From Gammaproteobacteria bacterium (GTDB taxonomy: Bacteria; Pseudomonadota; Gammaproteobacteria; M30B25), in assembly GCA_018402195.1 (NCBI GenBank), contig JAGYIW010000004.1:2607-66606 (forward strand): 64,000 nt of DNA, read 5' to 3'. How positions within the stretch are numbered: position 1 is the first letter of the stretch; each line of letters begins with the position of its first letter. This document shows, piece by piece, positions 15,876 to 30,528 of the stretch. The position numbers were made by a program, and so were the translations under genes. Under the pieces are notes generated by a model. It ran no database searches. It was given only the letters and a program-made list of their open reading frames with translations, and was not told the origin of the DNA.

Positions 15876-18764
15876 TCATGAGGTTGTGCTGCTGATAGTG
15901 ATAACATCAACGTTTGTTTGATCGCTTCCTCCTAATGGAGCACTTACATGTAAGCTTGGTGGCGTTTTGCTGTGGTATTCAATATGTCTAAGCAGCTGAC
16001 TCAAGCACAAGAATTGTCCTACGAATGCCATCATAAAGAGTGGGGGTAAGGGTGGGAAATCGCTAGAGAAACCCAGCAGCCAAGATTGCATGGCTATCAG
16101 CCCTGTCTCATGTTCACCAGGACAGCCTATCCAATGGCACACATAGTCTTGGCATTCTTCCAAATGATGCAGCGGCACTTTGGCAAAAGATTTGACCAGA
16201 TGTTGCAGGGCATCCAGGCCTAGCTCTGAGAAGTCATGATCTTCATAGGTTTCTTCATCACAGATCTGTTCCATGATATAGGTGCACAACAGCTCTTCAA
16301 GCAGGTAGAACGACGCCATTGATTGTTCAATTTGCCAAAGAGCTGTCAAGGTATCAGCTTGTAGCGACAGTAATGCTTTGCTAAGTTCAGGCAGTGGGCA
16401 GTCTTGGGTAAAAAGCTTGAGGGTGGGGTTGCTTAGTTGTGCTAACCAACCATTATTGCGTGACGATAACAGGCACAAATAGTCTGTTTTTCCTTGATGG
16501 TACCCACAAAATACCAGCAAAGATGGATTGTGGTCATGGTTATAGCGCAAATAACCGCGGGCAGTATCATGTAACGCCTGGGCAAGTGTGCCTGCAAGAT
16601 GCTTGCGTACATGTTGTTTGGCTTGAGTGTCTTCTTGGAGTTCATTGCTAGCTTGTTCCACCATTTCTTTGGTCAATGCATGCCAAGGGTTACAGGCATT
16701 GAGTAAAACCAATCTAGCTGCATAGCCACGTAACATGGGTTTGCAAGTTTTGGCAAAATCATACCAAGCGCATGCAAGGGAATGCTCGATGGCATCGAGG
16801 GATCGGCTAAAGGCATGAAAGTTCACGGTATTATTGGTGGATTTTTGGCAAAGCACTTCAAGTCTTTCTTTAAGCAAGCGGTGTAATTCCTGAGAAAAAT
16901 CCTGGGCATGTAAGTGCACCAATGACTGTCCCATATCCTCGGAACCTTCGCAAGCTACCAGGGTAATGTCTGTGCTGGCAAAGGGGGCAAGTTTTTGCTC
17001 AACCAGGTCATGTTCGCCAGCAAGCAGGTCTTGCACCAGTGTTCTAGCAAATTGGTCAAGTTGATCTCGATAGTGGGTCGATTTATTACGTTGAATCTGT
17101 TCCAAACATTGACGATTAAGCTGTTGTAAAATATCCAGGGTATAGCGATGTGCTTTTTTGACCGACTGCCGCCACTGAGTCAGTATGCCAAAGTTACGCA
17201 TGGTGCTGTTATGCTCTTCTTCCAAAGCTTTAAGCGATTGGCGAATGACATGCAATGTTGGGAGATCAAGCGTTTGTGCTTGATTCAAGGCCATGTTGTG
17301 CTGATAAATACGAGTCCAAAGGGTGGTATTATAATAAATACTGCACAAAGCTTTGACAGTAAAGGGCTTGGCACGTAAGTGTGGCAGAGCAGAAAGCAAT
17401 GGCATGGCAAGTAATTGGTTTTTCAATTGACGAACTTGGGGTAGAAGCTCGGGAAAGTTAAGTATGCTATGGCACATGCGGGCAATTTGACTGAGGTGTT
17501 GGCTTTCACGTACGAATACTGCATCTTTGCTCAAGCCATTGAGTGCTTGGCTTCGAATGCGCGTGGCGGAAAAAAGTGCTAAACCTGCGTGTGTGAGTTT
17601 TTGGTGTTGGTGCCAGAAAGTATCTTCACTAGTGAACTGCTGTGTGTCAGAGCACAGCTTAATTCGATTGAGCATGGTCTTGAGTATCAATAACGCTTCT
17701 CGACAAAGCAGCAGCTGTTTTTGGCCGATGTCATCCAGCATGCTTGATTCATGATTGATAGAAGTGTTGGCTTTAGTTTTTTCGCTGCCCTGAGAGGGCT
17801 TGACACTAAGGTGTTTCATTTTTAGGCGGTACAGCAAGGGAGGGTACTCGGCCTGCTTTTGCATAAGCTCAGCAATCATGAGCATGGAAAAAGTAGCATT
17901 AGCATGATCTACCAACTGTTGGATACTCATGATTTGGTAAGCATTGCTAGGACACTGGCCATGTTGCTGCCAATGTGTCAATTCTCTGCGGGCCTGCTGT
18001 CTTTCACTTGGATAATCATCCAGTACTGAGACATAGGTCTTGGTGTGCGCAAAGGTTTTCACGATTGCGGTTGGCAGGGAGGCCTCTCGTAGATGTTGTT
18101 GGTGTTGATCATGATATTGCTGAGCTCGGTAGCTCATGACCGCAGTCATATCAGTACCATCTTGCCCTTTGGGGAAACAAAAGCTTTGCAGCACTCGTTT
18201 ATCAATAAGCGCCCGCCAGTAGCTTGGGTTTTGGTTGAGATAAATCAGCTGTCTTTGAAAAAGCAGACTAAGGTGTAAACGGTAGTTAAGCCTGGCGTGG
18301 TGGAGCACTTTCTTAGTACATGTTAGAAACATATCCCTAATCCAGCGCCTTATAAGTTGGATAGACTTGGGAGGACTTTTGTCATGCCATTTGGGTTTAG
18401 TCTTATGCCAAGTGTAACCTGTGATGACTTTAGCTAGATTGGCAAGGCGCTGCAGGTGCCTATTGATTTCCACTTGCGCTAGCTGTTCACCAGGATCTTG
18501 CACTGAGCGTATGCTGGCATTAAGCCAGGAGAGCAAAATTTGGTAGGGCTGTTCGAAGGCTCGGTAAGCAGTAATAATAGCCTGGTTTTCTTGAAATGCA
18601 GCACCAAGATAATCCCTTGGGTCAGTTAAAAAACAAGGGGGGTTTTTGCAAAAATCTTGCCAAGCAAGAAAAGCAGTTTGTGCATCGTTAGGCATTAAAA
18701 CCATATAACTGGGTGATTGAAAGTGTTGTGCCCAAGTTTTGGTGAAAAAAGGGGTGTCAGCCAT
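15876..18764 (-). CDS. Giant hypothetical protein (962 aa, orphan)
   Basis: Uninterrupted 2.9-kb ORF, divergent from the 1990-codon gene across an AT-rich spacer. No recognised motifs. There is a hydrophobic segment near the C-terminus. Confidence 0.75.
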   Translation of the reverse strand: MADTPFFTKTWAQHFQSPSYMVLMPNDAQTAFLAWQDFCKNPPCFLTDPRDYLGAAFQENQAIITAYRAFEQPYQILLSWLNASIRSVQDPGEQLAQVEINRHLQRLANLAKVITGYTWHKTKPKWHDKSPPKSIQLIRRWIRDMFLTCTKKVLHHARLNYRLHLSLLFQRQLIYLNQNPSYWRALIDKRVLQSFCFPKGQDGTDMTAVMSYRAQQYHDQHQQHLREASLPTAIVKTFAHTKTYVSVLDDYPSERQQARRELTHWQQHGQCPSNAYQIMSIQQLVDHANATFSMLMIAELMQKQAEYPPLLYRLKMKHLSVKPSQGSEKTKANTSINHESSMLDDIGQKQLLLCREALLILKTMLNRIKLCSDTQQFTSEDTFWHQHQKLTHAGLALFSATRIRSQALNGLSKDAVFVRESQHLSQIARMCHSILNFPELLPQVRQLKNQLLAMPLLSALPHLRAKPFTVKALCSIYYNTTLWTRIYQHNMALNQAQTLDLPTLHVIRQSLKALEEEHNSTMRNFGILTQWRQSVKKAHRYTLDILQQLNRQCLEQIQRNKSTHYRDQLDQFARTLVQDLLAGEHDLVEQKLAPFASTDITLVACEGSEDMGQSLVHLHAQDFSQELHRLLKERLEVLCQKSTNNTVNFHAFSRSLDAIEHSLACAWYDFAKTCKPMLRGYAARLVLLNACNPWHALTKEMVEQASNELQEDTQAKQHVRKHLAGTLAQALHDTARGYLRYNHDHNPSLLVFCGYHQGKTDYLCLLSSRNNGWLAQLSNPTLKLFTQDCPLPELSKALLSLQADTLTALWQIEQSMASFYLLEELLCTYIMEQICDEETYEDHDFSELGLDALQHLVKSFAKVPLHHLEECQDYVCHWIGCPGEHETGLIAMQSWLLGFSSDFPPLPPLFMMAFVGQFLCLSQLLRHIEYHSKTPPSLHVSAPLGGSDQTNVDVITISSTTS

Positions 18765-18925
18765 AGCGGGTCCTTTTTGATTAAGATAGCCGCTATTCTA
18801 TCTTACGATTTTTATGATAAGTAGACGGTTTTTTTCACTATAGGGATGTGTTTGGGCGGAGATCAACTTTATTTTTTAAATAACATATTGTTTTTTATAA
18901 TAAAATATATTTTTATGAACTTTAT

Positions 18926-30400: not shown

Positions 30401-30528
30401 AAAGTAAATCAAGCGATGTGGGTCAGGGAGGTTTTTTTTCAAGTAGAGTTGAAGAGGATGCTTCATCGATTTTGCAGCAAGAGGTTAGTCAAGGAGCTAG
30501 CAAAAGTTCTTGTTGTGAGTTAATGTGA
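27496..30528 (+). CDS. NLR-like STAND protein: helical N-domain, NACHT NTPase, pentapeptide repeats, WD40 repeats, C-terminal CaaX motif
   Basis: AAGGAG lies upstream of the ATG. Walker A GHAGSGKT is at 28249-28272 and Walker B FILDGLDEL at 28516-28542, with a FIHQSFLEYFIA motif. There are seven pentapeptide repeats at 29773-29877 (AELSG VDLSG SDLSH CHIKG IKLHY AKLDG CKLSN). WD40 units read GHSDGVRCISYSPDGKSLATGGWDGRVRLW. The protein ends ...SSCCELM. Confidence 0.85.
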   Translation: MADTVEAIVEITLAIKVQIDKAESISEYVNNLYAKIEHLAFQLYCLFQADKLVGIADYAKHLGAVESTLRDIQALMVSEESQGFLSKLARTGENHKIFEQYDKALDGAYKVFSIDMHLRQDSRKPSTTAQGGEKKRRTDHRDSSSTTQDQREEKKRRTDHRDSSSTGIEAWLEDFGRSQETQASLEILQSAIVKLKQGYIKRWQHDELDQLANFYVPLNGQMSDSKQAVRHDLAAKISDFLQSRKKVCLLLGHAGSGKTSYGQMLERALWTSHENQDKSSTDDAMLSVVSTESIRSIPIRLELKGYDRESAKRCVENSLCKQGLKDPEIEALKRSEHAFTFILDGLDELSGGGMPCLYRENELSTWGKGSHTIIGCRVEYVSGQSNYKAILGPGGEQGQLSVDEWYVAPLNDDQVGEYLNKQEKSGQLEESQATYEAFIKATEGLKELIDSPFLLKVFLSAYPRLKAQIEEQTQSDESSGQGKKSNARRITRSDLYEAFMWSWFEREEGKLLDSLGKDLTEIDFKASFSAFSQELALAMYGRGINEVAYRERQKVLWSRSRTSQANKVSNSISAQADADLWDTFFSKKDEKATLARRGSPLRCMSGKDDQGNVSKRYSFIHQSFLEYFIAMSLWEAMEGIDTSNPETITRAQEVWGLRLLSTDPEGKVAAMPVVINFVSERLRYDGSKKALKDKLYSLVKGSKVGNTKRLSKERSKEAILSASNAMTVLNFALESFAQKDLEEPGIFKGIQIPGAWIQAAELSGVDLSGSDLSHCHIKGIKLHYAKLDGCKLSNIHHPENPVLKVSGGVKDIALSPCGTQMAVATGKVIKLYARKGIQWQHQKTLEGHSDGVRCISYSPDGKSLATGGWDGRVRLWGLDGRAIAALEGHRGEVRCISYSPDGKSLATGGNDRTVRLWRRDEGGNWRQVWQAPRKGDMSAVNSSMKEVEGLSERDELLFKQLGAKLSVSKSKSSDVGQGGFFSSRVEEDASSILQQEVSQGASKSSCCELM
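27892..27992 (+). repeat. 41-bp direct repeat with 60-bp period encoding EKKRRTDHRDSSST twice
   Basis: gaaaagaaaaggaggacagatcacagggatag(t/c)agctcaac occurs at 27892-27932 and 27952-27992 with one mismatch. Confidence 0.9.
30031..30246 (+). repeat. Two near-identical 123-bp WD40-repeat units in tandem
   Basis: The units start at 30031 and 30154. They share a long identical core gtaaggtgtatcagttattcaccggatggtaagagcctggcgactggggg. Confidence 0.9.

Follow-up and report, generated by a model that had tools for sequence, protein, structure and literature searches.

Here, we describe a 14.6-kb block of very long open reading frames (ORFs) that lies between rnpB and the pan operon in a 64-kb stretch of gammaproteobacterial contig JAGYIW010000004.1 (hereafter the window, meaning the whole stretch of DNA that was analysed). 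The RNase P RNA gene rnpB (bacterial class A; 15290-15691, plus strand; Rfam RF00010, 263.6 bits) is followed by P1, an ORF of 962 aa on the minus strand (15876-18764), by ORFs of 1990 aa (18981-24953) and 752 aa (24954-27212) on the plus strand, and by P4, an ORF of 1010 aa on that same strand (27496-30528). P1 is divergent from the other three across a 216-bp spacer (18765-18980) with a G+C content of 0.27. The left flank holds rsmI, lppC/lpoA, yraN and genes for a BON protein and an M50 peptidase, and the right flank holds a DUF2520 protein gene, panB, panC, coaX and coaBC. A preliminary description of this DNA had listed the four ORFs (962, 1990, 752 and 1010 codons) at these coordinates, the A+T-rich divergent spacer and the core genes on either side (rsmI/rnpB and panB-coaBC), all of which is borne out, the last by domain searches and Rfam. 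At 44% G+C, the ORFs are too long to be chance products. The same description took them for four genes of an inserted accessory island; our comparisons point instead to three independent units, namely an old lineage-specific gene (P1), one broken giant gene and an unrelated NLR-like gene (P4).

The giant gene and its in-frame TAG

The ORFs of 1990 and 752 codons lie in a single frame and are parted only by a TAG (24951-24953, plus strand) with ATG ATG directly 3' of it, the junction reading ...TGG TAG ATG ATG... as previously noted. Their counterpart is P0009, a 2,749-aa ORF on L002 (a 20.8-kb ENA metagenome contig), where it is divergent from the P1 homologue P0008. By BLASTP, the 1990-aa part matches P0009 residues 9-1990 (E 4e-174) and the 752-aa part matches residues 2053-2512 (E 3e-28), and a tblastn comparison of P0009 with the window yields a single high-scoring segment pair over 19017-26510. 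In a MAFFT global alignment, the read-through translation (2,743 codons, one stop) is colinear with P0009 across the TAG, the position of which falls within the open frame of this orthologue; identity per 100 alignment columns is 22-31% after the TAG against about 30% before it, with no collapse. Because both ORFs are colinear with P0009 straight through the TAG, they are one giant gene of about 2,743 codons (18981-27212, plus strand), orthologous to P0009 and cut by a single in-frame TAG, and the earlier count of four genes becomes three units.

Genome-wide recoding of TAG is ruled out, since TAG is the ordinary stop of lppC, coaBC and metK in the same window. The split would go back to a recent nonsense mutation, to a fission maintained by UAG-AUG stop-start coupling or to a base error, which deserves attention given that the window probably stems from a hybrid Nanopore/Illumina assembly (PMC8382752). 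For the TAG junction, no second, independent assembly is on record. Because an ATG directly adjoins the TAG, the tail of the giant could still be produced by termination-reinitiation. This ATG (24954) has no preceding Shine-Dalgarno sequence, the NCBI annotation places the start of the downstream ORF at ATG 24996, and the G+C content at third codon positions (GC3) of the giant is 0.39 upstream of the stop and 0.34 downstream. A 36-bp tandem duplication (25210-25281, plus strand; two copies, 97% identical) adds 'HTLNDKIALLPN' twice in the downstream half of the giant; the orthologue P0009 is without it.

The giant resembles interrupted giant genes of reduced host-associated genomes in having one in-frame stop, followed at once by an ATG, in an otherwise intact orthologue. 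It differs from early pseudogenes in that its tail is without further decay, and a base-calling error in a hybrid metagenome-assembled genome (MAG) would give the same picture. One could still read the giant as a pseudogene in the making and P4 as a truncated remnant, both of them decaying, functionless DNA in a shrinking genome. An in-frame TAG where the relative's gene is uninterrupted, the lack of a Shine-Dalgarno sequence before ATG 24954 and the lower GC3 past the stop would agree with this, as would the roughly three WD40 blades of P4 (too few for a propeller) and ORF-less kilobase stretches in the window with truncated permease and methyltransferase fragments. However, the 752 codons past the TAG stay open and match the orthologue no less well than the upstream part does, so that inactivation, if any, would be very recent, unless the tail is still translated; both P1 and P4 are intact; and uncorrected Nanopore indels in the hybrid assembly (PMC8382752) may account for the ORF-poor stretches. 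We regard decay of this kind as improbable.

P1, its relatives and the question of an island

P1 shares 36% identity over its full length with P0008, the sole full-length homologue from a word-indexed search, and an exhaustive search of 1.84 billion representative proteins with a profile of P1 and P0008 found 5 family members only, one of them a P1 homologue from a European coastal marine sample. Conservation of P1 extends from end to end and includes many invariant Cys, His, Trp and Pro residues. The word-indexed search with the giant, which scored only the 8,000 candidates sharing most words, returned the query alone, and PDB sequence-profile searches with the P1 and giant family profiles gave no match. 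Paralogy of P1 and the giant was considered and rejected, the two being unrelated by hhalign, and there are no further copies or remnants of either in the window.

The left side of the window is syntenic with L002, where the order is rsmH, the giant and the divergent P1 homologue, then rnpB, rsmI, lppC, yraN, BON and M50. Between the two, identity is 62% for RsmI, 60% for the BON protein, 50% for the M50 peptidase, 44% for YraN, 39% for LppC and 36% for P1, with 27% for the upstream and 23% for the downstream part of the giant. Two further members of the P1 family, P0016 (contig L004) and P0018 (contig L005), are directly divergent from rsmH-ftsL with no giant between. The P1-family gene adjoins rnpB in three loci (the window, L002 and L004) and is divergent from rsmH in three relatives, directly in L004 and L005 and across the giant in L002; RsmH identity among these contigs is 55-61%. 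The giant is found in the window and in L002, whose P1 proteins are also the most alike, and is missing from L004 and L005. Since P1 has kept its place on the rnpB/rsmH side while core proteins are only 39-62% identical, it is, from these comparisons, an old, vertically inherited, clade-specific gene at the rnpB/rsmI-rsmH junction.

Several details of these loci deserve mention. The rnpB match in L002 (13092-13482, minus strand) overlaps the final ~59 bases of the opposite-strand P1-homologue ORF (which ends at 13150), and rnpB in L004 is co-directional with the P1 homologue, not convergent. In Gammaproteobacteria, mraZ is usually found upstream of rsmH (the gene order of Pseudomonas and E. 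coli); no mraZ lies upstream of rsmH in L004 (886-1993), L005 (291-1346) or L002 (476-1535), and a P1-family gene or the giant is there instead. The spacer at 18765-18980 presumably holds the promoters of both P1 and the giant. Its orthologue in L002 (9785-10000) is also exactly 216 bp long, has a G+C content of 0.25 and is not significantly alignable with it. A motif shared by the two spacers, TTAATNNNTTAANTTAAG (unique in the window and in L002), was dropped as evidence because a 15/18 match also turns up in 28% of shuffled spacer pairs.

These comparisons bear directly on whether the block was inserted, as the preliminary description had proposed. P1 and the giant hold the same rnpB-side position in L002 at 39-62% core identity, which argues against their recent insertion. 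At the rnpB-pan junction, the P1/giant divergent pair is conserved on the rnpB side in L002, where neither the NACHT/WD40 gene nor the pan operon is adjacent; presence or absence of the block as a whole is not what the relatives display, P4 being found at the locus in none of L002, L004 and L005. Co-occurrence of the families likewise holds for P1 with the giant in L002 and fails for P4, absent there, and for L004 and L005, where P1 stands without the giant. There is no tRNA in the 64-kb window, no flanking repeat of the block was found, and no integrase domain is present among the proteins scanned. The synonymous codon distance of the block ORFs to the core set is 0.06-0.13, against 0.08-0.15 within core genes, and their GC3 is mildly lower (0.34-0.45 against 0.43-0.52 in the core). 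A plasmid collection gave no match for P1, the 1990-aa giant part or P4 residues 1-735, and a phage collection gave none for the 1990-aa giant part.

Reading the block as one accessory island for a new defence, toxin or secretion system of four components would be in keeping with the adjacency of the genes (three of them co-oriented), with the lack of any known housekeeping domain among them, with an NLR-like NTPase as a typical defence component and with a G+C content slightly below that of the flanks. Yet two of its four genes are one, L002 has only P1 and the giant, and L004 and L005 have P1 alone; codon usage is native, with no tRNA, integrase or direct repeat; the parts searched against plasmids and phages have no match there, and PADLOC gives no convincing one; and P4 has its own spacer and ribosome-binding site. 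The island is in our view already largely refuted and extremely improbable.

P4, the NLR-like gene beside the pan operon

The block ends, as the preliminary description had stated, in an NLR-like NACHT/WD40 gene, with a significant WD40 match (PF00400, E 3e-27 to 3e-29) and a NACHT match just below the Pfam threshold (PF05729, 26.3 bits against a gathering threshold of 26.7, E 7.6e-6). The P4 translation carries GHAGSGKTS (Walker A) and FILDGLDE (Walker B) in this NACHT-type P-loop NTPase core (28234-28548, plus strand). A pentapeptide repeat (PF00805, E 4e-6) precedes the WD40 blades, of which there are only about three (29773-30273, plus strand, for repeat and blades together); two of the WD40 repeat units are 87% identical in DNA and 123 nt apart. 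Two weaker leads concern the ends of the protein. Residues 5-143 (27508-27924, plus strand) may form an MLKL/HeLo-like four-helix-bundle domain, judging by a match to PF22215 MLKL_N (E 0.0095, 15.9 bits against a threshold of 27, model positions 1-137 of 142). The translation ends in CCELM after a Ser-rich tail, which gives a CaaX-like C-terminal CELM (30514-30525, plus strand) with an extra Cys ahead of it; Legionella effectors are host-prenylated at CaaX boxes (PMC7542358). A 60-bp tandem duplication in P4 (27869-27988, 85% identical) encodes two KKRRTDHRDSSST copies, and the duplicated 20-residue segment contains KKRR and resembles a basic nuclear-localisation-like motif.

P4 is preceded by its own 283-bp spacer and a strong AAGGAGA Shine-Dalgarno sequence, and no P4 homologue is present at the locus in L002, L004 or L005. 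It thus seems to be a unit of its own, outside the conserved P1/giant pair, and to lie at a rearrangement breakpoint beside the pan operon. A promoter/terminator scan remained at chance level. Downstream of P4, a G+C-rich perfect hairpin (30621-30653; CCGCGCGAAAATGCC-GAA-GGCATTTTCGCGCGG) is likely a terminator or boundary ahead of the pan operon, and the DUF2520 protein gene (30803-31513, plus strand) lies directly 5' of panB-panC-coaX, an order that we take to be like the PanG-type ketopantoate reductase clusters of Francisella and Coxiella and that would fit a Coxiellales-related lineage. A genome scan with PanB found only one distant MAG, L001 (PanB 47% identical). Upstream of DUF2520-panB-panC in L001 (JAUIDD010000019, Gammaproteobacteria), at a distance of 2.6 kb, is an ORF of >2,211 aa (1-6636) that combines AMP-binding, thioesterase and NACHT domains, a second and unrelated NACHT giant close to such an operon.

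The layout of P4, with a possible N-terminal helical domain, a NACHT-type P-loop core bearing Walker A and B, and C-terminal WD40 repeats of high internal identity, recalls the tripartite one of NLR/STAND NTPases such as fungal HET-type NLRs, cyanobacterial NACHT-WD40 proteins and bNACHT. Compared with those proteins, its NACHT match falls under the Pfam threshold, its WD40 blades number about three and follow a pentapeptide repeat, and it has a CaaX-like C-terminus, a duplicated KKRR segment and no PADLOC defence match. An anti-phage role inside the bacterium, as a bNACHT/Avs-like bacterial NLR whose N-terminal helical domain kills the cell on infection, would accord with a layout (N-terminal helical domain, NACHT, C-terminal repeats) seen in bacterial and fungal NLRs, with the weak full-length MLKL_N match at the N-terminus, with closely similar internal WD40 repeats of the kind typical of NLR sensor domains, and with another NACHT giant near the pan operon of MAG L001. 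We nevertheless consider it somewhat unlikely. PADLOC returns only a WD40-driven HEAT-ARM_XIII match and a weak P-loop match for P4, with no defence model on the NTPase; the repeat domain is very short; the CaaX-like tail and the KKRR duplication look like eukaryotic targeting motifs; and the value of phage defence is unclear in an obligately host-associated bacterium.

Genome context and possible functions

That the first three ORFs encode no nameable domain, as originally reported, is confirmed by our searches. P1 and the 1990-aa part have no Pfam, NCBIfam or PADLOC match as whole proteins, and the 752-aa part has none in Pfam or NCBIfam and a lone PADLOC match to Cas8b (E 0.009). Pfam searches on 333-450-aa pieces of P1, both giant parts, P0009 and P0016 gave inconsistent matches, all with E > 0.001. 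Neither P1 nor the giant nor P4 has a transmembrane-like segment, and inspection by eye (no predictor was run) shows no N-terminal signal peptide in any of the three. Predicted isoelectric points are 7-9 for P1 and the giant, both rich in Leu and Gln, and 6.8 for P4. A repeat search that recovered the P4 WD40 repeat as its positive control found no internal repeats in P1 and the giant or in the homologues of either. A giant repeat adhesin or an RTX- or Rhs-type toxin was considered and rejected, there being no tandem repeats, Pfam match, transmembrane-like segment or signal peptide visible by eye. AlphaFold2 (AF2), run on two-sequence alignments, predicts all-helical structures for P1 (mean predicted local distance difference test score, pLDDT, 43) and for giant residues 800-1990 (pLDDT 36.5), which makes P1 and the giant all-helical at low confidence; Foldseek with the P1 model returned no match at E <= 0.001. 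Profile searches and structure prediction, which the preliminary description had suggested, thus gave no clear homology of P1 or the giant parts to known families.

Six more ORFs in the window (226-732 aa) are without a Pfam or NCBIfam match: 1073-1978, 1962-3569 and 3613-4293, and 4348-6546, 8724-10538 and 36377-37231 on the minus strand. Because these are interspersed with core genes, orphan genes appear to be a genome-wide trait and not specific to the block. A 155-aa protein (41883-42350, plus strand) carries a eukaryote-type U-box E3 ligase domain (PF04564, E 6e-20). U-box E3 ligases are a hallmark of host-manipulating bacteria such as Legionella. Three stretches (39200-41900, 43400-48400 and 51000-56400) have no ORF of >=130 aa and many short overlapping ORFs, and include a truncated amino-acid permease (44275-44772, minus strand) and a Methyltransf_28 fragment (48394-48912, minus strand); they may be either decayed pseudogenes or uncorrected Nanopore indels of a hybrid assembly.

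The window is probably from a reduced-genome MAG of order UBA7916 (Ca. Comchoanobacterales). A Logan contig of run SRR14300309, from Lake Shunet, is 100% identical to window positions 7010-9255. Lake Shunet is a saline meromictic lake whose MAGs come from a hybrid Nanopore/Illumina assembly, among them M30B25 (Gammaproteobacteria, order UBA7916, 1.29 Mb at 87% completeness, G+C 44.3%) (PMC8382752). UBA7916, or Ca. Comchoanobacterales, is described as a genome-reduced sister group of Coxiellales that carries a Dot/Icm-type type IV secretion system and many eukaryote-like domains (PMC9418006).

Taken together, we tentatively favor, as something close to an even call yet short of one, a mosaic of three independent units in which host-directed proteins would be the mechanism. 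P1 is a clade-specific, predicted helical protein of ~1,000 aa whose place beside rnpB/rsmI is older than the split of four deeply diverged relatives, and the giant, divergent from it, is a gene of ~2,743 codons cut here by one TAG into 1990 and 752 codons. Both would serve as soluble helical scaffolds that leave the cell with no Sec signal, most plausibly via a Dot/Icm-type type IVB secretion system, a role for the pair about which our doubts slightly outweigh our confidence. P4, probably transcribed separately, is an NLR-like STAND NTPase with a possible MLKL-like N-terminus, NACHT, a pentapeptide repeat, a short WD40 region and a CaaX-like tail, and could be either a bacterial-intrinsic NLR or a host-targeted, eukaryote-like NLR mimic anchored to host membranes. 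Translocated host-directed proteins are our best guess because the probable order, UBA7916, is reported to have Dot/Icm-type secretion; the lack of visible transmembrane segments or signal peptides, the U-box protein and orphans nearby, and the eukaryote-like WD40 repeats and CaaX-like end of P4 are consistent with it.

Large orphan Dot/Icm effectors of Legionella and Coxiella offer the closest comparison, being likewise large, soluble, helical and basic, without a Sec signal or known domains, lineage-restricted and fast-evolving, and located among core genes near eukaryote-like proteins (U-box ligases and CaaX-bearing effectors; PMC7542358); the secretion system itself is carried by the probable host order (PMC9418006). 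Unlike those effectors, the block proteins, as candidates, have no sequence similarity to any known effector, the 2,743-codon gene is far larger than is typical, and P1 keeps its synteny over order-level divergence, as effectors rarely do.

Several further observations weigh against export to a host. No secretion-system gene (no type IV secretion system gene) is present in the 64-kb window, and the tie of the window to M30B25/UBA7916 is circumstantial. P1 is nearly as conserved as core LppC and is fixed beside rnpB, rsmI and rsmH, so that a cell-intrinsic gene fits as well as an effector. Because P1 occurs without the giant in L004 and L005, the two are not an obligate two-part system; the pLDDT values of 43 and 36.5 make the helical scaffold weakly based; and the MLKL_N and CaaX leads on P4 are below any formal threshold.

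P1, and perhaps the giant, might accordingly be lineage-specific proteins that stay in the cell, for example a cytoplasmic scaffold tied to division or the envelope. This would suit a gene that has stayed next to rnpB/rsmI or directly next to rsmH-ftsL, where the division/cell-wall cluster begins, across four deeply diverged genomes, with an identity (36%) close to that of LppC (39%), full-length conservation with invariant Cys, His, Trp and Pro, and codon usage and GC3 like those of core genes. We think it unlikely all the same: the family is absent from all other bacteria sampled, including sister orders whose division machinery is the same; the giant, at 23-27% identity, has changed far more quickly than the core and is missing from L004 and L005; and eukaryote-like and orphan proteins abound in the genome context.

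Returning to host-directed proteins, their most far-reaching form, which we regard as a long shot, is that P1 and the giant would found two new type IVB-secreted families of Ca. Comchoanobacterales-like protist associates, a divergent pair at rnpB since early in the clade, with P4 an NLR mimic bearing an MLKL-like pore-forming head and a host-prenylated tail, delivered to trigger or block protist cell death.

As it stands, the locus offers a corrected gene model, in which one giant gene replaces two and three units replace an island, and a well-delimited orphan set in a MAG of a kind common in host-associated bacteria, which by itself gives no new mechanism. It also brings to light two sequence families with almost no public relatives, at a fixed landmark of rnpB, rsmI and rsmH, in a lineage thought to be sister to Coxiella and to live with marine or saline protists. 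If exported, P1 and the giant would be entry points to host handling by an uncultured, ecologically widespread group; and, should its MLKL-type head and CaaX tail be true, P4 would be an unusual bacterial case of eukaryote-style cell-death machinery.

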